NCBI GenBank assembly: GCA_965215275.1
Contig: OZ244044.1
Coordinates: forward strand, 640,001 to 704,000
Source: Thermodesulfobacteriota bacterium
GTDB taxonomy: Bacteria > Desulfobacterota_D > UBA1144 > Nemesobacterales > JAJCZQ01
Direction of reading: 5' to 3'
DNA: 64,000 nt
A model generated the notes under the pieces. The model saw nothing but the letters and a program-made list of their open reading frames with translations, was not told the DNA's origin and did no database searches. Below, one piece after another: positions 1,722 through 63,971 of the stretch; position 1 is the stretch's first letter, and the number at the start of each line of letters is the position of its first letter. Position numbers and translations under genes: made by a program.

Positions 1722-4700
1722 ATGAAACATTTCAAAACAAAAACACGTAATTCCATTACTCCCCCCCCCCCCGTGTATACATGACCTTTCAGTCTGGTAT
1801 AAGTATTTTTTAAGAACAATGTTTAAGATAATACCCCCCCCCATCTAAGTCATTACTAACATTAGTCTTATTTCTTCTGTGTATCATGGTCATAGCTGCA
1901 AAAGGACAGAGCAGTCTGGAAGAAACATTATCTGAATGCAGAGGTAACAGTGCAGAAACGGAAGATCCGTTATACGGATGTCAGTGGCATCTGAAGAACA
2001 CGGGGCAGTTTATTTATTCAGGAAAGGAAATAACAGCAGGAGAAGATATAAACATAGAGGGGGTGTGGAACGAAGACGTATACGGTACCGGAATTAACGT
2101 AGCAATAGTAAGTGACGGTATCGACCTTTCACATGAGGACCTTTCTGCAAACGTCCGTTCCGGACCGAACTATGATCTTTCTGGAAGAAACAGTTCTGAA
2201 GAGAACAGTTCTGAAAAAGATAATTCAGAAAGAGATGATCATTCTGACGGTTCATCCTTTACCGGAACACGAGCGGCAGGTGTTATTGCAGCGGCTGGAT
2301 ATAACGGACTGGGAGTAAGAGGAACAGCACCTGGTGCGAGTATATACAGTTACAGGTTATCCGATGATCTCAGGGAAGCGGACGCGGTGGTCCGTAATAA
2401 GGAAATAACCGCTGTATCGGTTAACGGCCTGGGATCTGAGGACGGAGCTTTTTTTCAGGAGGCTTCAACTTCCTGGGAAGAAGGAGTGGAACTTGGTATA
2501 AGTAAAGGGTTTTATGGTAAAGGTGTGTTTTACGTCCGGGGAGCAGGGGACGGGCATGAGAATAACGATCAGGCTAATTTTTCTGAATATTCTAATTACT
2601 ACGGGGTAACATCTGTGTGTTCAACAGACGGTTTTGGAAAAAAGAGTATTTTTTCAGAAGAGGGAGTAAATCTATGGGTATGTGCACCTGGTTCTGATAT
2701 TGTAACCACAGATAACAACAACGATTACGTTGTAACATCCGGAACATTTCTATCAGCTTCACAGGTTGGAGGAGTGGCAGCACTGCTGAGAGAGGTAAAT
2801 GGACAGCTGAGCTGGAGGGATATAAAGCTTATACTTGCGGGTTCAGCACGTCAGAACGATTTTTCTGATATGAGCTGGGAGACTGGAACTGTTAAATACG
2901 GCTCTGATACGGAAAGATATAATTATAATCCTAAGTATGGTTTTGGAGTGGTAGACGCAGAAGCGGCGGCAGAACTTGCAAAAAGCTGGAAAGGCGTTGG
3001 AGAAATGAGGACCGTTACCGCCTTTTCAGATAAAGAGATAACAATTCCTGATGGAGAAGGAAATGGAGAAGGAGAAGCAGACGGGGTACTTGTCTCCAGA
3101 CTTATAATACCGGACCTGGAGGAAATATTTACGGAATTCGTTGAGGTAGAACTTGTTTTTTCTCATGACCGCTTACAGGACCTTGATATAAAAATAACCT
3201 CTCCTTCCGGAACAGTATCTGAACTTGTAAGGGAGTTTTCAGGGGAGGAAGAAGACGCTGAGATCAGTTACCTGAGAAGAACACATCGTTTCGGGTCGGC
3301 AAAGCACCTCGGAGAAGACCCTTCCGGAGAATGGGTCCTTAAGATATCCGATACTGCTTCCGGAGATGAAGAAGATGGAGAAAATACTGTTACCTTACAC
3401 TCATGGAGCATTAAGGTATACGGGAATTTTTATCAGGGACCTGGCAGTGAGATAAGTGCTAAACATCATGATCTTAGTTTTGGTGGTGCAACGGTAGATG
3501 AGCAGGTGTATGTTGTACGCTCAATAGCAGGTCTTCCAGTAACTCTGCCTGAAGCAACGAGAGGTACTGCTCCATATACTTACAGTTTAACTCCTCGTTT
3601 ACCTTCTGGATTGAACTTTAACAGTAACGATCGGCAAATAAATGGATTACCTACCAGTGTAAAAAGTAAAACTGAGTATACATATAAAGTAACGGACAAT
3701 GATGGAGATATGGATAATCTGACGTTCGGAATTACTGTAGAAGCTAATACCGTACCAAGCTTTACTAGCGGTGAGATGATAGATAATCTGGTGTATACAG
3801 TTGGGGTTCAAATAACACCAGTAACTCTGCCAGAGGCAACGGGAGGGAATGGAGCATTAAGATATTTACTTTCTCTTTTACCTCTTGGATTGAATTTTGA
3901 TCCTGACACCCGAGTAATAAGTGGCACACCCACCCGTGCATCTATTAGGCATATGCTATATACAGTATTAGACATAGATGGAAGTAGTGCTCAATTAGAG
4001 TTCAGGATAAGAATAACAGTAGCAGAACCAAACACGGAACCAACCTTCGGCAGTGAAACGATAGATAATAAAGTGTATATAAACGGCATTACAGCAGTAA
4101 ATGAAACACTGCCAGAAGCAACGTCAGGGAATGCTCCATTAACTTACAGTTTAACTCCTGCCTTACCTGCCGGATTGGATTTTACCCCTGCTACACAAGT
4201 TATAAGCGGAACACCGACTACTGCAACGTCTGAGACTGATTACACGTATACAGTAACGGACGCAGATAATGATACAGATGAACTGGAGTTCAGTATTACA
4301 GTGGAAGAAGACAGCATGCCGGAGATAGACGGGAGTACAATACCAGCACAGATGGAGTACAGGGCAGGGGGAGCACCATTAAGGTTTCCTGAGGCAACGG
4401 GAGGTAATGCACCTGTTACTTACAGTATAACACCTGAACTGCCAGCTGGATTGAGATTTAACGAAGTAACGCGGGAAATAAGTGGGACACCCAGGAGTGC
4501 ATTAACTGGTACTTACATGTATACGGTAACGGACAGGAATGGAGATACGGACGAGGTGAGTTTCATGCTCAGTGTAATACCAGGAACGTCAGGTACTGAT
4601 GCAGGCGGAGGTGGAGGATGTGCGATCTCTGATCAGAGCAGCGTTGTCTCTGACCTGCTCGGAGCAGTGGTATGTCTGATGCTTATACCTGTGTCAGTAA

Positions 4701-4738
4701 TGATCAGAAGGAAGAGAAGAGCTCAGATAAAGACTTAG
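1722..4738 (+). CDS. S8 paralog 1: kexin-like S8 pseudo-peptidase + P-domain + 4 putative Ig repeats + GGGGC-CTERM anchor; currently frameshifted at poly-C tracts (main ORF 1886-4738)
   Basis: S8 motifs QWHL, SWRDIKLILA and YGFGVVDA; P-domain DLDIKITSPSGT and GEWVLKISD; repeats LPEATGGNAPLTYSLTP..LPxGL.F...ISGTPT; C-terminal GGGGGCAIS-TM-RRKRR. The triad positions read VSDG, TGT and GTF. Confidence 0.88.
1761..1772 (+). repeat. Poly-C tract (C12), first tract in the paralog-1 leader
   Basis: Read directly; lies 39 nt after ATG 1722. Confidence 0.9.
1834..1842 (+). repeat. Poly-C tract (C9), second tract in the paralog-1 signal-peptide region
   Basis: Read directly; immediately precedes the in-frame hydrophobic stretch SKSLLTLVLFLLCIMVIAAKG. 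Confidence 0.9.
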
Positions 4739-12418: not shown

Positions 12419-15400
12419 ATGAAAAATCCAAACATAAAAACACGTAGTTCCATTACCCCCCCCCATCTAAGTCATTACTAACCTTAGTCTTATTTCTTCT
12501 GTTTATACTGGTAATAGCTGCAAAAGGGCAGAGCAGCCTGGAAGAAACATTATCTGAATGCAGAGGTATGAGTTCAGACATAGAAGATCCGTTATACGGA
12601 TGTCAGTGGCATCTGAAGAACACTGGACAGTTTATTTATTCAGGGAAGGAAATAACTGCAGGAGAAGATATAAACATAGAGGGAGTGTGGAACGAAGACG
12701 TATACGGTACCGGAATTAACTTAGCAATAGTAAGTGACGGTATCGACCTTTCACATGAGGACCTTTCTGTAAACGTCCGTTCCGGACCGAACTATGATCT
12801 TTCTGAAAGAAACAATTCTGAAAGAAACAGTTCTGAAAAAGATAATTCAGAAAGAGATGATCATTCAGACGGTTCATCCTTTACCGGAACACGAGCGGCA
12901 GGTGTTATTGCAGCAACTGGATATAACGGACTGGGAGTAAGAGGAGTTGCACCCGGTGCGAGTATATACAGTAATGAGTTAACTGGTGATAACAGGGAAG
13001 CGGACGCGGTGGTCCGTAATAAGGAAATAACTGCAGTATTGGTTAACGGCCGGGGATCTGAGGACGGAGCTTTTTTTCAGGAGGCTTCAACTTCCTGGGA
13101 AGAAGGAGTGGAACTTGGAATAAGTAAAGGGTTTTATGGTAAAGGAGTGTTTTACGTCTGGGGAGCAGGGGACGGTCATGAAAGAGGAGATCAGGCTAAT
13201 TTTTCTGAATATTCTAATTACTACGGCGTAACTGCCGTTTGTTCAACTGACGGTTTTGGAAAAAAGAGTATTTTTTCAGAAGAGGGAGTAAATCTATGGG
13301 TATGTGCACCTGGTTCTGATATTGTAACTACTGATAACAAAAACGATTACGTTGTAACTTCCGGAACATTTCTATCAGCTTCACAGGTTGGAGGAGTGGC
13401 AGCACTGCTGAGAGAGATAAACGGGAATCTGAGCTGGAGGGATATAAAGCTTATACTTGCGGGTTCAGCACGGCAGAACGATTTTTTTGATCCGAGCTGG
13501 GAGACTGGAGCTGTTAAATACGGTTCTGATACGGAAAGATATAATTCTAATCCTAAGTATGGTTTTGGCGTGGTAGACGCAGAAGCAGCTGCAGAACTTG
13601 CAAAAAGCTGGAAAGGCGTTGGAGAGATGAGGACCATTACAGCTTCTTCAGATAATGAACTGACAATTCCTGATGGAGATGGAGAAGCGGACGGGGTCCT
13701 TGTTTCCAGACTTATGATACCGGACCTTGAAGAGGTAACATTTACGGAGTTCGTTGAAGCTGAGCTTGTTCTTTCGTGTGACTGCTTACAGGACCTTAAT
13801 ATACAGATAACCTCTCCTTCCGGGACAGTATCTGAACTTGTGCGGGAGGTTGTAAGGGGATCTTCGAATGAAGAAGAAAACTGCGTCAGTTACCTGAGAA
13901 GAACACATCGTTTCGGGTCGGCTAAACACCTCGGAGAAGACCCTTCCGGAGAATGGATCCTTAAGATCTCTGATACTGCTCCCGGAGATGAAGAAGATGG
14001 AAAAAACACTGTTACCTTACACTCATGGAGCATTAAGGTATACGGGAATTTTTATCAGGGACCTGGCAGTGAGATAAGTACTAAACATCATTTCAGTTTT
14101 GGCAGTCAGACGATAGATGATCAGGTGTATACAACAAGGGTTCAGATAACACCATTAGTGCTGCCTAGGGGAACTGGAGCGAATGGATCAGTAGGTTACA
14201 GTATATCTCCTAATGTACCTGCTGGATTGAGTTTTGATCCTGACACCCGGGTGCTGAGCGGAACACCAACTACTCCACAGGGCAAGACTACTTATACATA
14301 TAGAGCAACAGACGAAAGACCCGATACGATTAGTTTGCGCTTCGGTATCACGGTAAAAGGTCCAGCCGGTGATCCGAGCTTCGGCAGTCAGACGGTAGAA
14401 AATCAGGTTTTTGTTAATGGTTCAGCAGTAACGTTAACTCTGCCTGCTGCAACGGGAGGGGATGGAACTTTAAATTACAGTTTAACTAATAGTATAGGTG
14501 ATCCAATTAAAATTAATGGATTGGATTATAACGAAAACACCAGAACGTTAAGTGGAACGCTCAACGTTTCTCCAAGTGGATTACCTATAACTCAAACTTA
14601 TACTTACAAGGTAACTGATGATGACGGTGATTCTGACAGTATTACTTTCTCTATTACTATAACGGACCTGGCCTTTGACGGTGGGCTTCCTTCTTCTTTT
14701 TATGAATTAGCAGCAAATATATTATCAATAATACCCATTGTACCGGGTAATTCGTTTCCTGTTGCAACGGGAGGTACTCCTCCATATAGATACAGTTTTA
14801 CTCCTGTATTACCAGACGGATTAGCGTATAACTCTAATGACAGAGTTATACGCGGGACACCAACTACTGCAACGCCCAGGACTACCTATGCGTATACCGT
14901 TACTGACAATAACGGACATACGGCTGAATTGATGTTCGATATTGCTGTAAGAGCAGCCTTTAGAGGAAGCACTGTGATAAATAACAAGGTGTATTTAACC
15001 GGTACAGCAGTAACGGAAGTGCTGCCTGAAGCAGATGGACATAATGGAACGTTAACGTACAGTTTAACTCCCAAATTACCTTCCGGACTGGATTTTAATG
15101 AAAACACCCGAGAGATAACCGGAACTCCAGATACTGCAACTTCCAGAAGCACTTATACTTATACGGTAACTGACACAGATGGATTTAAGACCTCAAGGAC
15201 GTTCGATATCACAGTAAGAGCAGAACCCAACACAATGCCTACCTTCGGCAGTGAGACCATAGAAAATAAGGTATATATAAACGGAGAAGCAGTAATGGAA
15301 ACACTGCCTGAAGCAACATCAGGGAATGCTCCATTAACTTACAGTTTAAGTGCTGATTTACCAACTGGATTGAACTTTAATCCTGATACCCGAGTGATAA

Positions 15401-15933
15401 GTGGCACACCTTCTACTGCAACGTCTGAGGCTGATTACACATATACGGTTACTGATATAGATGGAGACACGGATGAGAGAACGTTCAGTATAACAATAGA
15501 AGAAGACAGCGAGCCGGACTTCAGCGTGACGACGATAGAAGATCAGGTGTACATGGGGAGATCAATAAGGTTGCCGGTAGCAACGGGAGGGAATGCACCG
15601 TTAGTATACAGTATAACGCCTCCCTTACCTCCTGGGTTGAGATTGGACAGAAACACCGGGGTAATAAGCGGGACGCCCGCGAGTGCGTCGTCTGAGAGGA
15701 CCTACACGTACACGGTAACGGACAGGAATGGAGACATTAAAGAGTTGACCTTCAGGTTCAGTGCAGCGGCTCCGCCACCGACAGGTAGTGATCCAGGCGG
15801 AGGTGGAGGAGGATGTGCCGTATCAGAGCAAAGCAGCGTTGATGAAGATATTCCTGGAGTAATGGCATGTCTGATACTTATACCCGTGTCGGTATTGATC
15901 AGAAGGAAGGGAAGAGCTTATATAAAGACTTAG
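12419..15933 (+). CDS. S8 paralog 2: pseudo-peptidase + P-domain + 6 putative Ig repeats + GGGGC-CTERM anchor; frameshifted at poly-C (main ORF 12568-15933)
   Basis: S8/P region nearly identical to paralog 1 (triad positions VSDG/TGT/GTF), different Ig stalk, C-terminal GGGGGGCAVS-TM-RRKGR. Confidence 0.88.
12456..12464 (+). repeat. Poly-C tract (C9) in the paralog-2 signal-peptide coding region
   Basis: Read directly; C10 would join ATG 12419 to the main ORF. Confidence 0.9.
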
Positions 15934-25699: not shown

Positions 25700-28600
25700 C
25701 TATGTTTTTATCTGATACCTTCTCTTCCTTTTAATTAATACTGATACAGATATCAGCATCAGACATGCCATCACTCCGAATAGATCAGAAACAACATTGC
25801 TCTGATCGGAAACCGCACATCCTCCTCCTGTACCAGTATCTGATGTTGTCGGTCTTCGTGGTGGTGACGGAGCGGGGGGAGCCTCTACACTGAGCATGAA
25901 ACTCACCTCATCCGTATCTCCATTTCTGTCCGTTACCTTATACGTGTAAGTATTAGATGATGCACGGATGGGTGTGCCACTTATAACTTGGGTAACTTCG
26001 TTAAAACTCAATCCAGCAGGTAAATCAGGAGTTATACTGTAAGTAACTGGCGGATTCCCTCCCGTTGATGCAGGCAGCGTTAATGGTCTCCCTGCTGTAT
26101 ACACCATTTGAGTTGAAATTGTCGCATCGTCAAGGTCCGGAGTGCTGTCTTCTTCTATAGTAATACTGAATGTCAAATCAGCTGTATCTCCATCTATGTC
26201 TTCTACCGTATATGTATAAGTATTCCTGCTCGTTGCAGTAGCCGGTATCCCGCTTATCTCTTGGGTAACTTCGTTAAAATCCAATCCAGTTGGTAAAGGA
26301 GGAGTTAAACTGTATCTCAATCCTCCATTCCCTCCTGTTGCCTCAGGCAGTGTTACTGGTGTTATTCGACTTCCTGCTATGTACTCCTGATCATCTATCG
26401 TCTCACCACTAAAAGTTGGCATTGCATCAGCTAATATCGTGATCCCGAACGTCAAATCAGCCGTATCTCCATCTATGTCTTCTACCATATATGTATAAGT
26501 AGTCCTGCTCGTTGCAGTAGTTGGTGTTCCACTTATCTCTCGGGCAGATGCGTCAAAATCCAATCCAGTTGGTAAAAGAGGAGTTAAACTGTACCTTAAT
26601 GTTCCATTCCATCCTGCTGCATCAGGCAGCGTTACTGGAAGGTTTATTGTTTTCCCTGCTACGTACTCCTGATCGGTTATCGTATCACTGAAGGTTGGTT
26701 CTTCATCTGTAGCTACCGTGATACCGAACGTCAAATCAGCCGTATCTCCATCTATGTCTTCTACCATATATGTATAAGTAGTTTTACTCACTGCAGTAAT
26801 AGGAGTTCCGCTTATCACTCGGGTAGCAGAGGTAAAATTCAACCCGGTTGGTAATGCAGGAGTTATGCTGTATCTCAATCCTCCATTCCCTCCCGTCGCT
26901 GCAGGCAGCGTTACTGGTTTTATTGGACTCCCTGCTATATACTCCTGATCATCTATCATCTCACCGCTAAAGGTTGGCATTGCGTCTGCTTCTACTGTGA
27001 TATTGAATGTCAATTCAGCCGTATCTCCATCTACATCAGTTACCGTATATGTATAAGTATTCTTACTCATCGCAATAGTGGGTGTTCCACTTAACACTCG
27101 GGTAGCAGGAGTAAAATTCAACCCGGTTGGTAATGCAGGAGTTATGCTGTATCTCAATCCTCCATTCCCTCCCGTCGCTGCAGGCAGCGTTACTGGTTTT
27201 ATTGGACTCCCTGCTATATACTCCTGATCATCTATCATCTCACCGCTAAAGGTTGGCATTGCGTCTGCTTCTACTGTGATATTGAATGTCAATTCAGCCG
27301 TATCTCCATCTACATCAGTTACCGTATATGTATACATAGTCCTGCTCATTGCAGTAGTGGGTGTTCCATTTATCACTCGGGTAGCAGGAGTAAAATTCAA
27401 CCCGGTTGGTAATGCTGGGGTTATATTGTAGGTTAATGGAGCATTCCCTCCCGTTGCATCAGGCAGCGTCACCGGAAGGTTTATTGCTGTCCCTGCTATG
27501 TACTCCTGATCATCTATCGTCTCACCACCAAAATCCGGCATGCTGTCAGCTTCTACCGTAATCCCAAACGTCAACTCAGCCGTATCTCCTTCTTCGTCTC
27601 TTACCGTATACGTGTAAGCAGTTTTACTCATTGCAGTAGCGGGTGTGCCACTTAGCACTCGGGTAGTGGCATCAAAGATCAATCCATCCGGCACAGTATC
27701 TAAACTATAAGTTAATGCTCCATCCCCTCCCACTGCAACAGGTAGCATTTCTGTTATTGCTGTACCTGTCACATATTCCTTATCATCTATTGTCTCACCA
27801 CCAAAGGTTGGCACATCAGATCCTACAATGATCCCGAACTTTATTTGATCTGTATCTCCATCATCATCGGTAACAGTATATGTATACATAGTCTTACTCG
27901 TTACAGTAGTGGGTGTGCCGCTTATCTCGCGGCAACTTCGTCAAAATCCAATCCATCAGGTAAAGCAGGTGTTAAACTATAAGTTAATGTTCCATTTCCT
28001 TCCGTCGCCGCAGGCAGTATTTCTGTTACTGCTGTACCCGTCATATACTCTTTATCATCTATCATCTCACTGCTAAAGGTTGGCACTGTATCGTTATTCC
28101 TATGACCATAAACTTTAATGCTCCACGAGTGTAAAATTCCTGTATTGTCAGAATCAGGATCAGATATATTCAAAGTCCAGTCTCCAGCGGGATCTTCTCC
28201 CAAGTGTTTGGCTGAACCAAAACGATGAGTTCTGTTGATGAAATCAAAGTCGTCTGTACTTCTCGTAAAAATTTGCGACACAGTGCCGTTAGGGGATGTT
28301 ATTTGTATATCTGGGACATATTCGTAAGTGAACCTGATATTAATCTCTACAAATTCCGTAAAAAGATCAGTATCGGGTATGTTCAGGCTGGAGACGGTAT
28401 CTCTGTTTTTTCCATCTAGGTGATCGGGGGGGGGGGGGGGGGAAGGGATTATTATGTCAATATTATTCGAAGAAGCAGTAAGGGTTCTCATTGGCGGAAC
28501 GGCAGTCCAATCTTCGGCAAGTTCTACTGCTGCTTCAGCATCCACTACCCCGAAACCGTACTTTGGATTGTAATTATAACTGTCTGAATCAGAACCGTAT

Positions 28601-30042
28601 TTAACTGCTACTGTCTCCCAGCCTGGGTCGGTCGGGTCGTTCTTGCGAGCTGAAGCTGCCAGTATCAACTTTAAGTCTCGCCAGCTCATATCACTGTTTA
28701 TCTCTCGCATCAGTGCTGCAACCCCTGAAACAACCGGAGCAGAAAATGATGTTCCTTTAACTAAAAAATAGTGGTCGTTATTATCAGTTGTTGTAATAAT
28801 TAAACCTGGAGCACATACCCATAAATTTACTCCTTCTTCCGAAACATTAATTTTCTTACCAAAACCGTCTACTGAACAAACGGAAGTTACAGCGTAGTAA
28901 TTAGAATACTCATCAGCATTAGTTTGATCTCTATTGTAATGTCCATTTCCACCTGCCCAGACATAAAAAACTCCTTTACCACCAAACCCTTCCTTGATAC
29001 CTGTTTCCACTGCCATTTCCCAAACTCTCTCAGCAGAGTAAAGACCAGAATTATCCGGCGGTCCCCAGCTGTTGTTGGATACCGCTGTTATAATGTGATT
29101 ACGGGTCATAGCATCTGCCCTGTTAGCAGAATTATTAAAAAGATGTGGCGCCTTTAACAGATCATAACTATATATACTTGCTTGAGGTGCTACCCCTCTC
29201 ACACCAACCCCATTATCACCCATTGCTGCTATAATGCCCGCTACTTGTGTACCATGGCCACTTCTAGGATTGAAGACATTATCCTCTCCAAGGTAATCAT
29301 GATTAAGATCGGAATTTACATTGGCAGCCAGGTCCTCATGATCTGTGTCCATACCATCATCGACCACTGCCACGTTAACTCCACTACCAAATATTCCATC
29401 ATTCCAGACTTCCTCCACGTTTATATCTTCGCCGGCGGGCATTCTCCGCCTGTTGATCCTCCACTGTCCTGTATTGTTCAAATGCCACTGACAACTGTAT
29501 AAAGGATCATCGGGAAAACTGGCAGTAATAAGGTCCTCACAATCAGAGGAATAAGTATTAGGTCTTGTATCTCTTATAACTTGAAGCTGGTACTGATCGG
29601 TACCACTGCTTCCTACAACGATATAGTACGTTCCCGGAACGAGAGGAGATGAAATATTCCGATTATCGTTGCTGTCACTTGCTATCAGGTTATCACTGCT
29701 GTCACACAACTGTAAACTGTATTCGAGATTGTTATCAGTGAAAGTCGTTTCTATAGTTACATCAATATCGTTTGCCGGGTCTATCTGAAAGTAATGCAGT
29801 CCACCGGCACTTTCAAAACTTCCATCGTGTGCCTCTGCGTTTACTGTCAACGTGGCTTCGACCGGTTCACTGGAGTCACAGTTATTAACACTGGTCTGAC
29901 CATATGCACCAATGGACATAAAACACAGAAGAAAGAAAAAGGGAATTACATAAACAACTTTATATACAGGCAAGTCGTCAGTGACTTTATCTGCCCATTT
30001 CTCCCTTGAAATAAAACTACGTAATTGATGAGGGTAAAACAT
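25700..30042 (-). CDS. S8 paralog 3: catalytically intact kexin-like protease + P-domain + 8 putative Ig repeats + GGGC-CTERM anchor; split by a 1-nt frameshift near 27930 (ORFs 27922-30042 and 25700-27889)
   Basis: Intact VVDDG / HGT / GGNG / GTS. The first Ig repeat continues across the frameshift (expected DEVAREISGTPTT). Ends GTGGGCAVS-TM-KRKRR. Confidence 0.87.
26821..27335 (-). repeat. Near-identical tandem Ig-repeat units (279-bp period)
   Basis: The unit EADAMPTFSGEMIDDQEYIAGSPIKPVTLPAATGGNGGLRYSITPALPTGLNFT occurs twice, with DNA offset 26922 vs 27201. Confidence 0.85.
28426..28442 (-). repeat. G17 (C17 on coding strand) homopolymer inside paralog 3, currently in frame
   Basis: Read directly; encodes SPPPPP at the start of the P-domain. 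Confidence 0.9.
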
Positions 30043-38053: not shown

Positions 38054-40554
38054 TCAAGTATATAAGTCCCAATTTTTTATCCGAGACCTTATCTTCCTTC
38101 TGATAACAACGGATACAGGTATAAGCATCAGAGATGCTACTGCTGTGAGCATATCAGAAGCAGCTTCGTTCTGCTCGGAGACCGCACATCCTCCTCCACC
38201 TGCATCACTACCTGATGGTGTTGGTCTTCGTGTCGGTGGTCTTGTTGTTGGTGGGTCTGTTGGTCCTGGCGGCGTGGTTGTTACCCTGATAGTGAATCTC
38301 AGCTCGTCCGTATCTCCATCTTCATCCGTTACCGTATATGTATAACTGCCGGAAGATACAGCAGTTGGTGTTCCGCTGATCACTCGGTCAGTTTCACTGA
38401 AAGTAAGTCCAGCAGGTAAAGAAAGAGGGGACAGGCTGTAGGTTAATTCTCCATTCCCTGCTGTTGCCTCAGGCAGTGTTTCCTTTATTGCAGTTCCCGG
38501 CACGTAATTCTTATCTGGTATGGTCCAGCTGTTAAACGTCGGTTTATTACCAGACATATGACCATAGACCTTAATGTTCCATGAGTGTAAGGTCCCCGCA
38601 CCTGCGACTGAAGCGTTGGTTATCTTCAAGGTCCACTCTCCGGCAGGGTCCGTTCCCAAGTGATTAGCTAAACCAAAACGATGCTCTCTGCCTGTATAGT
38701 CAAAGTCGTCTACAGTAAGAGATCTGCCAGATAATAAAAGTGATAAAGCTTCTGCTGGATATGCCTCAGTGAGTTTTGACACTCTACCGTCAGGGGAAGT
38801 TATTTCTATACTTAAAAAAGGAAAGAAAGGGTGAGTGAAATTGATACCGATCTCTATAAATTCCGTAAATACCTCAGTACCTGTTATATCGATATCAGGT
38901 ACTGTAAGTGTGAAAACAGCGGAAACATCTTTTGCATCTTCTCCCGTTGTGAATCCTGGTATAACCGTATCGATATTACCCGAGGAAACCGTCACGGGTC
39001 TCATTGGCGGTGGAACGTTGGTCCAGCTTTCGGCAAGTTCTGCTGCAGCAGCAGCGTCTACAATGCCAAAACCGAATTTTGGATTGTAACGATAATATTC
39101 TGAATCAGAACCGTATTGAAGTGCCACTCTAGTCCATTGTGTGTCGGTAAAACCTAACTGTACGTCATGACTGGTTGAACCTGCCAGTATCAGTTTCAGG
39201 TCTCGCCAGCTAAGATCACTGTTTACCTCCCGCAGCAGTGCTGCTACTCCTGAAACGACAGCAGCTGAATTTGACGTTCCAGGGAACTCAAAACTGTAAC
39301 CGTCGTTATTGTCGGTAGTTACAATACCAGAACCCGGTGCACATACCCACAGATTGAAACCCTCTTCTGAAAAGGAACTTTTAGTAACACTAGATGAAGT
39401 CTTACCGCTCTCTGCTGAACATACAGTGGTTACAGCGTAGTAGTTGGAATACTCATCAAAATTAGCCTGCTCTGCTCCTTCATGTCCGTCCCCTGCTGCC
39501 CACACGTAAAATACTCCTTTACCACCAAATCCTTCTCTTATACCCGTTCTCACTCCTTCTTCCCATTCTGATGAAGCCTCTGTAAGAACCGGCAGGTCCT
39601 TCGGTCCCCAGTTGTTGACCGATACAGCCGTTATATCCTTATTACGGACCATGGCATCCTTTGCGTTAGCATCACTGAAGTTATCAGCTAAATTATAACT
39701 GTAGATGCCTGCCTGAGGTGCTACACCTCTTACTCCAAGGCTGTTATCACCCACTGCTGCTATAATGCCAGCCACACGTGTACCACGACCACTTGAAGGA
39801 CTGTACAGATCACCGCTTCCTGAATAATCATGAGAAAGTGTGGTATCCACGTTATCAGCAAGGTCCTCATGATCTGTGTCCATACCATGATCTACCACTG
39901 CTACGTTAATCCCAGCTCCAAATATACTATCATCCCAGACCTCTTCTATGTTTATATCTATATCTTCTTCAGAGGTTTGGAATATCAGCTCGCCACTTAC
40001 TTGCACATCAACTGCTGGACGTTTCAGATACCACTGACACCCGTATAAGGGATCATTTGGAAAATTGGTAGTGATATCTGTACAGTCGCCGAGTAAGTTT
40101 TGAGAATCAGCTAATAAAACTCTGATATTGTAGGGTGTACTTCCACTGCTTCCCACAACTATATAGTACATTCCCTGTCTTAAGCGGGTTTGTAGAGTGG
40201 CCGTTGCTGCGTTACCTGACAAAGTCACTTCAGCAGTACTTGCTATCAGACCATCATTGCTGTCACATAACTGTAAGCTGTATCCCAGATCATTGGAGAA
40301 GGGGAAATTTGCCTTTATATCTACAATAAGATCTTCATTTATGTTTGTCCGAAAGTAATGCGGACCAGAACCGGCAGCTAAACTTCCACTACGTGTACTT
40401 CCGGCTACTCTCAACGTAGCTTCGGTCGTTGCACTGGAGTCACAGTTATTAACGCTGGTCTGACCATATGCACCAACGTTTACAAAGCACAGAAGAAAGA
40501 AAAAGGGAATTAATAACTTATGGGGGGGGGTATTACTCTGAATAAGATGTTCAT
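38054..40554 (-). CDS. S8 paralog 4: His-less pseudo-peptidase + P-domain + 1 Ig repeat + GGGGC-CTERM; frameshifted at poly-C (main ORF 38054-40414); stop codon interrupted by the IS
   Basis: VVDHG / GRGT / AGDG / GTS. ATG at 40554 followed by C9; C10 gives MNILFRVIPPPHKLLIPFFFLLCFVNVGAYGQ. Confidence 0.87.
40522..40530 (-). repeat. G9 (C9 coding) tract in the paralog-4 signal peptide
   Basis: Read directly. Confidence 0.9.
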
Positions 40555-40563
40555 GACCTTTTC

Positions 40564-40593
40564 ATTTTACTTTGTATTATTAATGAATGTCAA
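40564..40593 (-). promoter_or_regulatory. Sigma70-like promoter of S8 paralog 4
   Basis: Minus strand TTGACA (40593-40588), 18 nt, TAAAAT (40569-40564). Confidence 0.65.
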
Positions 40594-40805
40594 GAATAAT
40601 TTCTTTTTTAACATGTACAAGTGCGGTACTGTACCATACCCTAACTCTCACCAATATCATCATAACCAGCCACAGTCCCAGTTCCTGCTCAAGCCGGGGT
40701 GAAACCGGCATGGGAAAAACTACCCGTCTGCAAATAAACGGATAGAAAATAATCAGACATATCAGACCCGAGCCTGCTTTCCATTCAGTCGGTGAAACAT
40801 GCCAG

Positions 40806-41450
40806 CTAAACAACATAAACAACCAAATAAACGACATTTGCCATGAAATGGAACGCCACACTTGACCAGATAGTGCCCGTTTTCATAAAAAGATATCCCA
40901 TTACGAGAGATGGAAAGAAAGTGCAGGCGTTGTTTACACAAACGGTACCTACGCTTCCCGCCGTCACGCAAACCAGTATCAGGTGAGCTATTGCAAACAA
41001 AGCACTGACCAGAACTATGGATTTGTACGTATTTCCAAACTCTCTCTGTAAATATCCTCGGAAAAAGAACTCTTCGGGAAAAGCAATTAATACAAACTGC
41101 GAAAATAAAAAGATACCGATCTCCCTTGTATCGCCAAACTTCCTGATATCCAAACTGCTTCCAACCCATTTGGAATATAGAAAGAGAAACAAGACATAAA
41201 AGAACAGGATAATGATCGATAAACCCAGTCCTTTAAGCAGTTTCGGTGTATTGAAGTGAAAAAAATCCAGGTCTTTGACCAATAATGCCGGAAGAATAAG
41301 CATTATATAGACACTGATATCCCATCCCAAAAACAGCTTTACAAAAAGAGAGGCAAGGAGCAAGACCAGATATGAAAAGACGGGTACTTTATAACGCTTA
41401 ATCAGTTCCTTTACCTTATAAAGCAAGGGAGTTCGTTTTATAAAAAGCAC
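40806..41450 (-). CDS. CPBP/CAAX (Rce1-like) glutamic intramembrane protease; candidate sorting enzyme
   Basis: Multi-TM; 'PEEFFFRGYLQ', 'SALFAIAH', 'AFHFMAN' (EExxxR, FxxxH, HxxxN). Confidence 0.88.
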   Translation of the reverse strand: MLFIKRTPLLYKVKELIKRYKVPVFSYLVLLLASLFVKLFLGWDISVYIMLILPALLVKDLDFFHFNTPKLLKGLGLSIIILFFYVLFLFLYSKWVGSSLDIRKFGDTREIGIFLFSQFVLIAFPEEFFFRGYLQREFGNTYKSIVLVSALFAIAHLILVCVTAGSVGTVCVNNACTFFPSLVMGYLFMKTGTIWSSVAFHFMANVVYLVVYVV

Positions 41451-41488: not shown

Positions 41489-41926
41489 TTAATAAACGTT
41501 TTCAGTTTTCTCTGATTCACATACTTCGTTTACAGTGTCCTTTACCAGCTGTCCATCTTCCCAGACTCTTTCTCTGACCTTATGACAGTTCGTTCGCTCA
41601 TTAAAATCCTGTGGTGTGGCCTCGATCCTCCTGTATCCGTCCTCGCTCCTGTAAACCACGGGTCTGCCTTCCCGTGCAGCCTCGCGTGACGCCTGCTCGG
41701 ATATATCTGCAAGAGAACCTCCAAAGATAGCTCCCAGAGCGCTCCCTATAGAAGCACCTCTCCAGCGATTTTCTCTATCTATCAACGCCCCTGCGGCAGC
41801 GCCTACCGCAGCACCTATACTTGCACCTTCTCCAACGCTCTTGGTACATGACGGCATAAAAAATAAGCATCCAGCAAATAAAACCAAAGAAATTTTCAAA
41901 CAGATGTTCCTTAAACTGTTTATCAC
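41489..41926 (-). CDS. Glycine-zipper lipoprotein
   Basis: Lipobox-like 'FFMPSC'; 'GASIGAAVGAAAGALI...GASIGSALGAIFG'. Confidence 0.75.
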   Translation of the reverse strand: MINSLRNICLKISLVLFAGCLFFMPSCTKSVGEGASIGAAVGAAAGALIDRENRWRGASIGSALGAIFGGSLADISEQASREAAREGRPVVYRSEDGYRRIEATPQDFNERTNCHKVRERVWEDGQLVKDTVNEVCESEKTENVY

Positions 41927-42033: not shown

Positions 42034-45030
42034 TTGAGGTTAAAACAACTGAAAATGAACTTGAGAAGGGCTTTTAAAATACTTAACGGAAATACTCTCC
42101 TGGTCATACTTATATCCCTGCTGCTGTCGCTGTTTTTAATTTCCGATAATTCCGCACAGCAGCGATCCAGTGACTACAACCTGGCAATATTACCAGCGAC
42201 CCTTAACTACGTAGACCAATACTACGTGGATGAAACGAAAATCGATCTTAATCAGATGACGATCAAAGGACTTAACAAACTTGAGAGTCTGGTCAATGAG
42301 ATACTCGTTCATTTTCCCGACCCGCAAAGCAGTTCTGATTTCACCGTGCAGGTCAATAAAGAAGTAAAAAGTTACAGGAACGTGAAAACAGACAGCTGGA
42401 GCAGCATTAATGAGGTCATGCAGGACGTCTTTTCGTTCGTAATACCCAGTCTGAAAAGCACCCGGATAAAACCCGTTGAAATAGAGTATGCGGTCATGGA
42501 TACAATGCTGAAAACCCTGGACAAGCATTCAGGGATCATCACACCCGAAGTTTATAATGAGTTCAGGATCGAAACCGAAGGACATTTTGGCGGACTTGGC
42601 ATCGTTATAGGGATCAGAGACGGGCAACTTACGGTAATTTCCCCTCTTGAAGGCACACCGGCCTACAGAGCCGGAATAAAGTCAAATGACAAAATAGTGC
42701 AAATTGAGAGTGAATCGACCATTAATATGTCCCTTATGGAAGCGGTAAACAGGTTAAGAGGAAAAAAGGGAACAAAGGCAAAGATCTATATCATGAGAGA
42801 TTCCTTCAACGAGATAAAAGAATACTTAATAACAAGAGACACCATAAAGATCGAAAGCGTTGAAGACCTTTCCCTTGACGGTGAAATACTGTATATAAAG
42901 ATCAGGGATTTTCATAAGAACACCATTAAGAGCCTCAAAGAAACAATACGTAATAACAGGAACGATATAAATGGGATCATACTGGACCTGAGAGGAAATC
43001 CTGGAGGACTGCTTGAGCAGGCAGAACAAGTGGCAAATCTTTTTCTTTCTTACGGAACCATCGTTACTACCAAAGCCAATAATTATCAAAGAAGCTATTA
43101 TGCAAAATCGTACCGGTCCGAATTCAATGGAAAGGTCGTAGTGCTCGTGGACTCCGGAAGTGCAAGTGCTTCCGAGATCGTCGCAGGGGCTTTAAAGAAC
43201 AATCAAAGAGCAATAATAATCGGAGAAAAGACCTTCGGAAAAGGTTCGGTACAGCAGATCTTTGACCTGAAGGGCGGAGCTGCTCTAAAACTCACTATTG
43301 CAGATTATCTGACGCCCGGAGACATCTCCATCCAGAACGTAGGAATTACACCCGACATTGAAGTAGTACCCGTGATAATTACAGAAAAGGATGTAATGTA
43401 CAATGATATAAAGAAAAATGAGCAGACAGAAACAGTTCCTGTACACAAGATCAAATACTTATATAAAATGCCAATTCAGGAACAGGATGAACAGATCCAT
43501 GACGAGGCACTGGCAGAAAGCGAGAAAAAGGAAAAAATAAATAAGGATTTTGCGGTTCAGCTTGCAAAGAACATCATCGAATCGGTAAACGTTCTGGACA
43601 GAGAAGAGGTACTGAAAAAAGGTAAACGTGTAATTACTGATTTTATCTCCAAGGAAGAAAAACATATTGAACTGAAATGGAAAGAACTCGGCATAGACTG
43701 GTCATCTGGAAACGGTTTTTCATCCGACCCGGACCTCCAGTTCCAGCTGCATCCATCAAAACCGAAGTTCATTGCCGGAGAAAAAACCGCAACGGCCGTA
43801 ACGGCAACGAACAACGGGACCAATCCCATTTACAGATTAAGAGCTATAACAGCTTCTGATAATCCCGTTCTTAACGGCAAAGAGGTGATATTTGGAAAGC
43901 TGCTTCCGGGACGGTCAAAAAGTCTGGATATAAACTTTGACGTTCCGGAATGGGTCAACACAAGGAACGACGAGGTGAAGATCAAGTTCTTCCACTCGGA
44001 CAATGAATATATCAAGGAGAGTAATTTCGATATAAGCACTATTGCAAAGGGCAAGCCGCTTTTTGCCTATAACTTCGAGGTCGTTGACGACGGCAGATAT
44101 GGATCCACGGGCAATGCAAATGGTGAACTGGACGAAGGAGAGCAGATATCATTAGTATTTAATATAAAGAACACGGGTACCAGCAGATCCCCAAAGACCA
44201 TAGTTACCATCAAAAATCTGTCAGGGGAAGCCTTATATCTTCAAAAGGGCAGATTTGAACTTGCCGAGCTGAAACCAGGTGAAAGCCAGATAGCTTCTTT
44301 TCTTTTTAGAGTTAATAACAAAAACAACATAAATCTGGAGATCAGCATCACTGACGACGCGTCCAGACAGATAATAACAACCAACCGAGTAGACCTGGTC
44401 AGATCAAACAATACTGAAAAGTTCGTAAGGTCCGAAGGCTGGGTAACCATAGAAAAAAGGACCCCGATCATGGGAGGGAACGATACCTTACCGTTAATTG
44501 CCTACGCCGAGAGCGGTTCAGTTTTCGACCTGCTTGGTTACAAGGGTGAGCATGCCAAGATCAGGCTGCCCACTTTAGAAAGAGCAGGATGGGTACTGAA
44601 AGAAAACATTAAAATAGATAAAGAACAAAAGAAAGAAAAAGACAGTCATGACTTTAAGGAAGTGTTTTTTTACAGCCAGCCCAGTATGGAAAATATGATT
44701 AATGATAGAAGAGACTTTAAGGAAGTGTTTTTTTACAGCCAGCCCAGTATAGATATCGCAAGTACGTCACTGGTAACGAACAAGAAAGAGATAAGTATCA
44801 GAGGCTCAGTTACCGATAACAATAAAATAGAGAGCATATCTATTTTTAAAGGCGACGATAAGATCAAGCTGTTAACCCCCAATAAAAACAGTCAGGTATT
44901 TTCATTTAATTCAAGTCTGGAAGACGGTATAAACGTTTTCAGTATAGTTGCAAAGGACACCAGCGGTTTATTTTCCAAAGAAACCGTTACGATAAGAAAA
45001 TCCACCTCTCCTGTAACCTTGAATGATTAA
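42034..45030 (+). CDS. S41A C-terminal processing peptidase with long C-terminal extension
   Basis: PDZ 'FGGLGIVIG', 'LDLRGNPGG', catalytic 'SASASEI', 'TFGKGSVQ'; ~500 extra aa of beta-rich domains. Confidence 0.9.
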   Translation: MRLKQLKMNLRRAFKILNGNTLLVILISLLLSLFLISDNSAQQRSSDYNLAILPATLNYVDQYYVDETKIDLNQMTIKGLNKLESLVNEILVHFPDPQSSSDFTVQVNKEVKSYRNVKTDSWSSINEVMQDVFSFVIPSLKSTRIKPVEIEYAVMDTMLKTLDKHSGIITPEVYNEFRIETEGHFGGLGIVIGIRDGQLTVISPLEGTPAYRAGIKSNDKIVQIESESTINMSLMEAVNRLRGKKGTKAKIYIMRDSFNEIKEYLITRDTIKIESVEDLSLDGEILYIKIRDFHKNTIKSLKETIRNNRNDINGIILDLRGNPGGLLEQAEQVANLFLSYGTIVTTKANNYQRSYYAKSYRSEFNGKVVVLVDSGSASASEIVAGALKNNQRAIIIGEKTFGKGSVQQIFDLKGGAALKLTIADYLTPGDISIQNVGITPDIEVVPVIITEKDVMYNDIKKNEQTETVPVHKIKYLYKMPIQEQDEQIHDEALAESEKKEKINKDFAVQLAKNIIESVNVLDREEVLKKGKRVITDFISKEEKHIELKWKELGIDWSSGNGFSSDPDLQFQLHPSKPKFIAGEKTATAVTATNNGTNPIYRLRAITASDNPVLNGKEVIFGKLLPGRSKSLDINFDVPEWVNTRNDEVKIKFFHSDNEYIKESNFDISTIAKGKPLFAYNFEVVDDGRYGSTGNANGELDEGEQISLVFNIKNTGTSRSPKTIVTIKNLSGEALYLQKGRFELAELKPGESQIASFLFRVNNKNNINLEISITDDASRQIITTNRVDLVRSNNTEKFVRSEGWVTIEKRTPIMGGNDTLPLIAYAESGSVFDLLGYKGEHAKIRLPTLERAGWVLKENIKIDKEQKKEKDSHDFKEVFFYSQPSMENMINDRRDFKEVFFYSQPSIDIASTSLVTNKKEISIRGSVTDNNKIESISIFKGDDKIKLLTPNKNSQVFSFNSSLEDGINVFSIVAKDTSGLFSKETVTIRKSTSPVTLND
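44650..44750 (+). repeat. 38-bp direct repeat with 63-bp period (in-frame duplication)
   Basis: gactttaaggaagtgtttttttacagccagcccagtat at 44650-44687 and 44713-44750. Confidence 0.9.
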
Positions 45031-61489: not shown

Positions 61490-63971
61490 ATGAACATTTT
61501 ATTTAGAATATCCCCCCCCCCACCATAAATTATTAATTCCCTTTTTCTTTTTTCTGTGCCTTGTAAACGTTAGTGCATATGGTCAGACCAGCATTAATAA
61601 CTGTGACTCCAGTGCAACGACCGAAGCTACGTTGAGAGTAGCCGGAAGTACACGTAGTGGAAGTTTAGCTGCCGGTTCTGGTCCGCATTACTTTCGGACA
61701 AACATAAATGAAGATCTTATTGTAGATATAAAGGCAAATTTCCCCTTCTCCAATGATCTGGGATACAGCTTACAGTTATGTGACAGCAATGATGGTCTGA
61801 TAGCAAGTACTGCTGAAGTGACTTTGTCAGGTAACGCAGCAACGGCCACTCTACAAACCCGCCTCAGAACGGGAACGTACTATATAGTTGTAGGAAGCAG
61901 TGGTGCTACATCCTATACAGTTCAAGTTCTATTAGCTGATTCTAGTGAACTCTTTGAGATCTGTCAAATTATCACTACCAATTTTCCAAATGATCCCTTA
62001 TACGGCTGTCAGTGGTATCTGAAACGTCCAGCAGTTGATGTGCAAGTAAGTGGCGAGCTGATATTCCAAACCTCTGGAGAAGATATAGATATAAACATAG
62101 AAGAGGTCTGGGATGATAGTGTATTTGGAGCTGAGATTAACGTAGCGGTTGTAGATCATGGCATGGACACAGATCATGAGGACCTTGCTGATAACGTAGA
62201 TACCACCCTTTCTCATGATTACTCAGGAAGCGGTGATCTGTACAGTCCTTTCAGTGGTCGTGGTACACGTGTAGCTGGCATTATAGCAGCAGTGGGTGAT
62301 AACAGCCTTGGAGTAAGAGGTGTAGCACCACAGGCAAACATCTACAGTTATAATTTAGCTGGTAACTTCAGTGATGCTAATGCAAAGGACGCCATGATCC
62401 GTAATATGGATACAACGGCTGTATCGGTCAACAACTGGGGACCGAAGGACCTGCCGGTTCTTACAGAGGCTTCATCAGAGTGGGAAGAAGGAGTGAGAAC
62501 TGGTATAAGAGAAGGGTTTGGTGGTAAAGGAGTATTTTACGTATGGGCGGCAGGGGACGGACATGAAGGATCAGATCAGGCTAATTTTGATGAGTATTCC
62601 AACTATTACGCTGTAACTACCGTATGTTCAGCAGAGATCAGTAATATTACAGGCAATAACAATATTATTAAGAGTTCTTTTTCAGAAGAGGGGTTCAATC
62701 TGTGGGTATGTGCACCGGGTTCTGATATTGTAACTACCAACAATAACGACGGTTATACTTTTGAGTTCCCTGGAACTTCAAATTCAGCTGCGGTCGTTTC
62801 AGGGATAGCAGCACTGATTAGAGAGGTAAACAGTGATCTCAGCTGGCGGGACCTGAAACTGATACTGGCAGGTTCAGCCAGTCATGACATACAGTTAGGT
62901 TTTACCGACACAGCCTGGAGACCAGTAGCATTTAAATACGGTTCTGATTCAGAACGTTATCGTCACAATCCAAAGTTCGGTTTTGGCATGGCAGACGCTG
63001 CTGCGGCAGCAGAACTTGCAGGAAGCTGGACCAATGTTCCACCGCCAATGAGACCTCTGACGGTTTCCTCGGGTAATATCGATACAGTTATCCCGGACTT
63101 CACAACGGGAGAAGACGTTTCCGATGTTTTCACACTGACAGTACCTGATATTGATATACCAGGTACTGAGGTCTTTACGGAATTTATAGAGATAGGTATC
63201 AATTTCACTCACCCTTTCTTTCCTTTTTTAGATATAGAAATAACTTCCCCTGACGGTACCGTATCAAAACTTGTTGAGGCATATCCAGCAGACGCAATAT
63301 CACATTTATCTGACAGATCTGTTACTGTAAACGACTTTAAGTACACGGGCAGAGAGCACCGTTTTGGTTTAGCCAATCACCTGGGAACAGACCCTGCCGG
63401 AGAGTGGACTTTGAAAATAACTAATAATTCACCTTCAGGTACGGGGACCTTACACTCATGGAACATTAAGGTCTATGGTCATATGTCTGGGGATACACCT
63501 ACGTTTAACAGCTGGACTATACCAGATAAGAACTACGTGCCAGGAATTGCAGTAAAGGAAACACTGCCTGAGGCAACAGCAGGGAATGGAGAATTAACCT
63601 ACAGCCTTTCCCCTCTTTCTTTACCTGTTGGACTTACTTTCAGTGAAACTGACAGAGTGATCAGCGGAACACCAACTGCTGTATCTTCCGGCAGTTATAC
63701 ATATACGGTAACGGATGAAGATGGAGATACGGACGAACTCATCTTTACCATCAGGGTAACGACTACGCCACCAGGACCGACAGACCCACCAACAACAGGA
63801 CCACCGACACGAAGACCGACATCATCAGGTACAGGCGGAGGTGGAGGAGGATGTGCGGTCTCCGATCAGAACGAAGCTGCTTCTGATCTGCTCACAGCAT
63901 TGGCATCTCTGATGCTTATACCTGTATCCGTTGTGATAAGAAGAAAGATAAGGTCTCGGATAAAGACATAG
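61490..63971 (+). CDS. S8 paralog 5: His-less pseudo-peptidase + P-domain + 1 Ig repeat + GGGGC-CTERM; frameshifted at poly-C (main ORF 61632-63971)
   Basis: Close copy of paralog 4 (VVDHG / GRGT / AGDG / GTS). C9 gives MNILFRISPPHHKLLIPFFFFLCLVNVSAYGQ. Ends GGGGGGCAVS-TM-RRKIRSRIKT. Confidence 0.87.
61512..61521 (+). repeat. Poly-C tract (C10) in the paralog-5 signal peptide
   Basis: Read directly; C9 or C12 restores the frame. Confidence 0.9.

Follow-up and report, generated by a model that had tools for sequence, protein, structure and literature searches.

A candidate CPBP sorting protease and its putative Cys-containing C-terminal signal in Dadabacteria

The closest described relatives of the system reported here are C-terminal sorting signals with a Cys that are paired with CPBP-family proteases. 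These include MYXO-CTERM with the enzymes MrtX, MrtC and MrtP (TIGR03901, NF040914; bioRxiv 10.1101/2023.06.07.544157; PMC11980579), JDVT-CTERM with MrtJ (NF033191, NF033192), and Synerg-CTERM with MrtS (TIGR04564, NF040589). Haft described two specificity peaks in MrtX, and co-presence across genomes is the pattern that defined JDVT-CTERM (bioRxiv 10.1101/2023.06.07.544157). According to PMC11980579, cleavage by MrtX, its dependence on the Cys, and its role in surface display have been demonstrated experimentally; MrtX also functions in E. coli, which has a single Lgt, and is the sole prokaryotic CPBP sorting enzyme with an experimental test. The same source gives Lgt as the leading guess for the enzyme that lipidates the tail Cys.

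We analyzed a stretch of 64,000 nucleotides (the window) from a closed 1.99-Mb genome (99.87% complete). It encodes a CPBP/Rce1-like glutamic intramembrane protease at 40806–41450 on the minus strand, as well as five paralogs of an S8 family associated with a Gly-Cys tail. Very probably this CPBP is a housekeeping enzyme of the myxosortase type that would cut a tail made of a Gly-Cys motif, a spacer, a Pro-containing transmembrane (TM) helix and a basic cluster, thereby keeping the tagged proteins anchored at the surface. CPBP and tail are found or missing together, and the CPBP is therefore likely to cut the tail.

The CPBP protein and catalogued myxosortases

The ORF encodes 214 amino acids from a GTG start codon whose assignment is uncertain, and it contains the motifs EEFFFR, FAIAH and HFMAN, as originally predicted. 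It scores 63.5 bits against PF02517 (gathering cut-off 22.4) and is the only match to this family in the genome. In an alignment of 29 orthologs P-E126-E127-x-F-F-R131, H156, C161, T-F-F-P-S, H201 and N205 are invariant, and every ortholog keeps PEExFFRGY. Both specificity peaks of MrtX, VVALPEEFFYRGY and RLSVFFPALIFGW, are matched by the ortholog motifs. The closest named orthologs are in records of Candidatus Dadabacteria or Thermodesulfobacteriota bacterium. A search by sequence found no solved structure for the protein. Its predicted model is helical (pLDDT 92) and appears to adopt an Rce1-like multi-helix fold; the top Foldseek rows are 6u0o and MmRce1 4cad (probability 1.0, TM 0.57–0.67), with E values of 2e-3 and 5e-2 that both lie over the 1e-3 line. 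In Dadabacteria orthologs residues 161–171 contain the invariant Cys161 along with a further loop Cys whose position varies. The two residues suggest a periplasmic disulfide; the Nitrospirota relatives of the CPBP are without this Cys-bearing loop.

The CPBP remains under every myxosortase cut-off, scoring 65 against 100 for Mrt_core (NF040914), 69 against 250 for MrtP, 58 against 195 for MrtC, 45 against 180 for MrtX and 33 against 325 for MrtZ. Similarly, none of the window tails reaches the cut-off of a CTERM model, including those for MYXO-, JDVT- and Synerg-CTERM. The best NCBIfam match of all 29 orthologs is a Mrt model. Of the 150 representatives nearest to the CPBP out of 1.84 billion, 117 were scanned (34 hand-picked, several for MrtP-like length, and 83 of lower rank), and 50 of these pass Mrt_core. 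None of the 18 scanned representatives in ranks 1–42 passes. In a tree of 77 cores the sequences that pass Mrt_core form a clade (95/86) with most of the Myxococcota-titled rows. The window CPBP falls outside this clade, in a group (94/73, not starred) with rows from Dadabacteria, Nitrospirota and Aquificota; the tree is unrooted, has 111 columns and is without a generic CPBP outgroup. Left out of it were 12 Dadabacteria rows that are near-duplicates and 2 rows that were mis-anchored.

The CPBP resembles MrtX, MrtC and MrtP in being a single-copy housekeeping protein encoded outside any client operon. With MYXO-CTERM and its enzymes the system shares the PEEFF.RGY and FFP motifs, dozens of clients, a tail consisting of Gly-Cys, TM helix and basic end, together with a type II secretion system (T2SS). 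However, the CPBP is short (~200 aa), has a Cys-bearing loop between its FxxxH helix and its TFFP helix, scores under every Mrt cut-off and, in the unrooted tree, lies outside the Mrt_core clade. The window-type tail differs from MYXO-CTERM in having one signature Cys and a spacer of 10–15 residues. Additionally, a Pro in the helix is usual for this tail whereas MYXO-CTERM has none, the host lies outside the Myxococcota and Bradymonadales, and the clients in this genome belong to one paralog family. MYXO-CTERM membership involves a cut-off of 20 bits (TIGR03901) and a TM helix free of Pro and charge, and the window tails fall outside it; the cut-off is passed by none of the five window tails, 2 of 20 relatives' tails and none of 13 sister-clade tails.

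JDVT-CTERM is similar in its GGGGGC start, single Cys and spacer, and the Nitrospirota sister form of the system described here is also a one-client adjacent cassette. However, the DP motif located nine residues past the Cys in JDVT-CTERM is absent, tail and enzyme score 10 against 27 and 33.5 against 75, and in Dadabacteria there are many clients per genome rather than one. Synerg-CTERM and MrtS share with the window sequences a Gly-rich motif ending in one Cys, a Pro inside the TM helix and a link to T2SS. Synerg-CTERM has no spacer between Cys and helix, whereas the window tails do, and the scores are again under the cut-offs (10–16 against 22.5 for the window tails, 59 against 130 for the enzyme).

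The system is well supported as an uncatalogued variant of the Cys-CTERM/CPBP class, with a presumed myxosortase-like action, outside every catalogued Mrt family. The original prediction of a lineage-specific member or new variant holds, since the window sequences miss every Mrt and CTERM cut-off. The housekeeping form in Dadabacteria, the cassette form in Nitrospirota and the T2SS-linked form at Phycisphaerae-type loci are all absent from NCBIfam 20.0. Literature searches on Dadabacteria sorting, myxosortase or CTERM, and on CTERM and CPBP in the sister phyla, gave no description of the system among the publications listed.

The Cys tail and its co-distribution with the CPBP

The five window tails consist of G-rich-C-A-[IV]-S-[DE]-Q, a spacer, a hydrophobic helix and a basic cluster. 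This is the motif that had been predicted for them, except that the helix LMLIPVSV is found in just three; the other two have LILIPVSV and LMLISVSV. A Pro is present within the helix in four of the five. The accompanying claim that five S8 paralogs end in the tail needs a correction for paralog 3, which is split into two ORFs on the minus strand. The N-terminal ORF (27922–30042) encodes an S8 domain with an intact D/H/S triad, while the C-terminal ORF (25700–27889), in a different frame, encodes Ig repeats and the Cys tail (25700–25828). Contigs from all four sequencing runs match the window across this junction.

The tail had been presented as a feature of five genes in the window. A profile search instead identified 60 strong copies and one remnant, scattered over the whole 1.99-Mb genome. 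In 52 cases the tail shares an ORF with an S8 domain, and in the remaining eight its gene is a split or shortened copy from that family, such that all 60 sit on one S8 paralog family. This family occupies 9.4% of the genome, and it was detected in only one of 41 genomes. As in the tripartite signals described by Haft, the tail is C-terminal and multi-copy, combines motif, TM helix and basic cluster, and occurs on proteins with an N-terminal signal peptide, the latter assessed by eye. Inside this genome its carriers are a single family; across the order they are unrelated proteins (G8/CEMIP, Chlam_PMP, DUF7107, beta-propeller, fn3, PPDK_N and S8). All 29 aligned tails keep the Cys, these rows having been selected for this residue.

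Myxococcota give no natural losses for phylogenetic profiling; this order does. We searched 101 of its genomes with a 29-row enzyme model and a 29-row tail model. The tail model was built from 17 of the same 101 genomes, and a minority of the tail matches was inspected by eye. Enzyme and tail occur together in 84 genomes and are both absent from 9, with seven genomes having the tail only and one the enzyme only; these eight discordant genomes are all at most 92% complete. Among the 85 genomes at least 90% complete the corresponding numbers are 73, 7, 4 and 1. For the 70 at least 93% complete, a line set after the table was seen, 63 have both, seven have neither and none is discordant. A single-copy enzyme in strict co-occurrence with the signal is what is expected of Cys-CTERM sorting enzymes, and the link between enzyme and signal that was originally proposed is supported by profiling both here and in the Nitrospirota (below), as well as by the lack of a rhomboid match in this closed genome.

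The seven double-negative genomes at this completeness comprise G002 and six members of a single genus (family f6), which points to two independent losses. PF02517 as a family is missing from all seven. In the window a glycine-zipper lipoprotein-like gene (41489–41926, minus strand) lies upstream of the CPBP and serves as a marker of synteny. In G002 (99% complete, read whole in 108 stretches) this gene lies 232 bp before a gene that we take from its sequence to be nadE-like, and the CPBP is gone. Unfiltered HMM and pattern scans of the whole G002 genome found neither enzyme nor tail. G002 is not broadly reduced. Of 1613 called genes in the genome studied here 1263 are also in G002, and it is without just 8 of the 377 genes common to this genome and 580 kb of G015, a denominator that leans toward core genes. 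For G015 itself (1.16 Mb) the absence of enzyme and tail comes from a profile search of the genome, the gene comparison having covered the 580 kb. The f6 genomes are reduced, and GspG is missing from both that were searched. Rhomboid (PF01694) is also missing from G002 and f6, and thus the co-loss of enzyme and tail in these lineages is not unique to the CPBP.

Several individual genomes deserve mention. G060, assembled in 7 contigs and one of the five discordant genomes at least 90% complete, has 14 tails and no match to the enzyme model. The closed genome G029 has kept the enzyme with a single tail found and has no second Lgt paralog (Lgt2, below); it possibly represents the system in decay. 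The CPBP of G006 was rejected as an ortholog, as EExxxR is missing. Weak tail matches in G015, G009, G031 and G004 were attributed to chance; the G015 match, which was inspected, has no Cys.

In one class of Nitrospirota, enzyme and tail are both present in the same 10 of 81 genomes (side by side in eight) and both absent from 71, a co-occurrence inflated by physical linkage, by kinship and by the use of some of these genomes in training the models. The related CPBP has a tail gene directly beside it or close by at 7 of the 10 loci in Nitrospirota, 6 of the 13 of Phycisphaerae type and one of the two in Aquificota. Both of the Nitrospirota tail clients scanned are S8 subtilases. A gspD-like gene is found at 12 of the 13 Phycisphaerae-type loci, and gspC and gspD were confirmed at one. 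In the Phycisphaerae-type records L260, L265, L269, L273, L282 and L287 the tail gene, the CPBP, a gspC-like gene and a gspD-like gene are consecutive, and the tails end in an uncatalogued pattern, ...LLPY-I-G-L...K-L-R/K-D. None of 13 sister-clade tails passes a catalogued CTERM model.

Genomic context and competing explanations

The CPBP was originally predicted to be dedicated to paralog 4, from its position about 250 bp upstream on the same strand. The distance is correct: the paralog 4 ATG at 40554 is 251 nt past the CPBP stop. Paralog 4 (38054–40554, minus strand) encodes an S8 domain with a His to Arg change, a P domain, an Ig repeat and the Cys tail (38054–38200, Cys codon at 38188). 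A C9 tract eight codons past its ATG (40522–40530, minus strand) throws the signal peptide out of frame. Two features on the same strand separate the genes. A terminator-like hairpin 3' of the CPBP (40720–40745) has a 10-pair stem and a T run and is weak evidence by itself, with one found compared with 1.6 expected in shuffled sequences. Immediately before the ATG is a sigma70-like promoter (40564–40593, TTGACA-18-TAAAAT) that matches 11 of 12 positions.

With tails dispersed in 60 copies, 7.0% of the non-family genes (108 of 1549) are next to a family gene, and for this reason adjacency is weak evidence; 32 of the 1549 (2.1%) lie directly upstream of a family gene on the same strand. At 24 of 29 loci in the order the CPBP ortholog is directly upstream of, and co-directional with, the nadE-like gene, and at none of the 29 is there a tail within 1.5 kb. 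With the CPBP a housekeeping gene usually beside nadE, and with a terminator and a promoter before paralog 4, the argument from adjacency fails here. The CPBP is a housekeeping enzyme in this genome; it is in Nitrospirota that a dedicated cassette form occurs.

Paralogs 4 and 5 are mutual best matches, 91% identical and in inverted orientation. Paralog 5 (61512–63971, plus strand; leader C10 at 61512–61521, His to Arg, tail at 63834–63971) stands before a mobile-element-like ORF and the nadE-like gene. Between 38054 and 63971 these two paralogs bound a 21-kb segment, which was likely inverted by recombination between them. On the simplest reading of the sequence an S8 gene was inserted between the CPBP and nadE, and the inversion followed. 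Paralog 4 would be one ordinary client that was likely inserted between these genes. The window also encodes a C-terminal processing peptidase of the MXAN_5808 family (42034–45030; TIGR03900, cut-off passed), which was rejected as the tail processor as it is retained in the tail-less G002.

We infer every biochemical step of the proposed pathway from sequence anatomy and co-distribution and by analogy with MrtX. The putative substrates carry an N-terminal signal-peptide-like stretch as well as the C-terminal tail. After Sec export the tail helix would hold the protein in the inner membrane, as for MrtX clients. Lipidation of the tail Cys would come next, with the second Lgt paralog as a possible enzyme for it here, and the CPBP would cut C-terminal to the Cys using the EExxxR glutamate. 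A T2SS, of which GspF and GspG pass their cut-offs in this genome, would carry the lipid-anchored protein to the surface. The clients here would be about 60 proteins, all from a single S8/P/Ig family that expanded recently; most are predicted pseudo-proteases, and their expression is likely phase-variable.

Three other explanations were weighed against a housekeeping sorting enzyme. Under one, the CPBP is co-transcribed with paralog 4 and serves it alone, in the JDVT-like manner of one enzyme and one client. The shared strand and short interval, the scarcity of genes so placed (just 2.1%) and the S8-tail and CPBP cassettes conserved in Nitrospirota are in its favor. However, 60 tails share the one enzyme, the tail is on unrelated proteins across the order, and terminator and promoter stand between the two genes. 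The orthologs adjoin the nadE-like gene rather than a tail, the S8 family was seen in only one of 41 genomes, and paralog 4 is out of frame in the assembly, all of which make a dedicated pair highly improbable. Slightly less remote, though still very unlikely, is that the tail stays uncut as a membrane anchor and that the CPBP performs some other job, both having been lost in reduced genomes. Tail processing in this order is a prediction, the same two lineages are also without rhomboid, and G029 retains the enzyme with one tail found. This explanation is at odds with G002, with the exact match in 10 of 81 Nitrospirota genomes and the adjacency there, which recurs at Phycisphaerae-type and Aquificota loci, and with a Cys that never varies among the aligned tails, chosen though these were for it.

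Cleavage at the glycine run by a rhombosortase or exosortase is the least probable of the three and can be given almost no weight. The run is similar to GlyGly-CTERM, and processing by a rhombosortase had been named from the start as the outcome that would count against the CPBP. However, the closed genome studied here has no PF01694 rhomboid match and closed G005 also lacks one, and both bear tails. Exosortase (PF09721) was found in none of five genomes searched, among them this one, and no GlyGly-CTERM match was obtained among 38 tails scanned. For this genome both enzymes were rejected as tail processors, and the sequence evidence largely refutes this explanation.

A second Lgt paralog and poly-C tracts

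The genome has two Lgt-family genes outside the window, 46% identical, at C1:1811865–1812617 (plus strand) and 1894699–1895445 (minus strand). Against TIGR00544 (equivalog cut-off 118.9) Lgt1 passes with 121.4 and Lgt2 fails with 90.4. Lgt1 adjoins a gene that, by eye, we presume to be lnt-like. In G003 and G005 the two fall into distinct ortholog groups; G009, G015 and G029 have one Lgt copy each, which is Lgt1. Among the 70 genomes of the order at least 93% complete, all seven without enzyme and tail have one Lgt copy, and 61 of the 63 with enzyme and tail have two or more. Both loss lineages have lost Lgt2 along with enzyme and tail, and in G002 the genes that flank its position are contiguous. 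G002 has a weak further match to PF01790 (18 bits, with two stops), which was rejected as an Lgt2 remnant, as tblastn did not recover it.

Other observations count against the association. G029 has enzyme and tail without Lgt2, and G022 (230 contigs) also has one Lgt copy. A strict ortholog search for Lgt2 was positive in 29 of the 70 genomes, with the second copy of genus g10 over the cut-off in 0 of 31. In Nitrospirota at least two Lgt matches are found in 3 of 10 tail-positive compared with 13 of 71 tail-negative genomes, no link being apparent, and a second Lgt was rejected as a general requirement. We consider it possible, but somewhat doubtful, that Lgt2 is the acyl-transferase of the tail in this order. 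A still more tentative and on balance unlikely proposal is a three-part C-terminal lipoprotein pathway in Dadabacteria in which Lgt2 would lipidate the tail Cys, the CPBP would cut behind it and a T2SS would follow, with this species displaying about 50 dead kexin-like proteins on Ig stalks, poly-C-switched in a manner resembling antigenic variation. If true, this pathway would identify the acyl-transferase that Cys-CTERM sorting still lacks. The losses in the order remove enzyme, tail and second Lgt together, which makes the question of the transferase testable with three small genes. The publications listed in a search on Lgt paralogs contained no description of this system.

Asp, His and Ser are kept, at what we take to be the catalytic triad positions, in seven of 57 aligned S8 domains; the other 50 are without the full triad. 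The genome has 139 C/G runs of eight or more and none of exactly seven, compared with 7 and 27 in G002. The leaders of the S8 family hold 80 of the 139. Other runs are in genes that by eye are TPR-like, methylase-like and glycosyltransferase-like. With one split gene left out, a leader tract is present in all 49 triad-broken S8 genes compared with one of seven triad-intact genes, where it is far upstream. Of 51 tract-bearing heads without the triad, 11 are in frame, 38 are out of frame and two have no near ATG.

In the window paralogs 1, 4 and 5 are out of frame. Paralog 1 (1761–4738, plus strand; tail at 4604–4738) has leader tracts C12 (1761–1772) and C9 (1834–1842), and paralog 2 (12456–15933, plus strand; tail at 15796–15933) has a leader C9 (12456–12464); the triad is lost in both. 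The triad-intact paralog 3 has no leader tract and an internal C17 (28426–28442). Compared with this length, X1 contigs have 1, 2 or 3 fewer C, X2 contigs 2 fewer and X4 contigs 3 fewer, differences to which sequencing slippage can contribute. A contig of run X1 is identical to the window over 40511–40575, which contains the C9 of paralog 4, at a position where contigs of the paralogs pile up.

Homopolymer-tract contingency loci of Campylobacter and Neisseria have slippery runs at the starts of surface genes. The tracts described here are similar in that C/G runs of eight or more lie just past the starts of putative surface genes and occur in methylase- and glycosyltransferase-like genes. They differ in that about 50 putatively switchable copies belong to one predicted pseudo-protease family and in that mutS is present. 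Loss of mismatch repair was rejected as the cause of the tracts, mutS being found in all five genomes searched, this one included. The poly-C runs are likely contingency loci despite the intact mutS, and expression of the S8 family, judging from the tracts, is probably phase-variable. A tract-switched family of predicted pseudo-proteases would thus fill the 9.4% of a 2-Mb genome given above. No description was found among the publications listed for Dadabacteria phase variation, sponge-symbiont tracts and pseudoprotease phase variation.

Elsewhere, a plasmid search with an ffh-like gene as query gave no match. At C1:5595–13524 of the same genome are three large unique ORFs, which we presume encode a Cas4 and two Cas12-like proteins.
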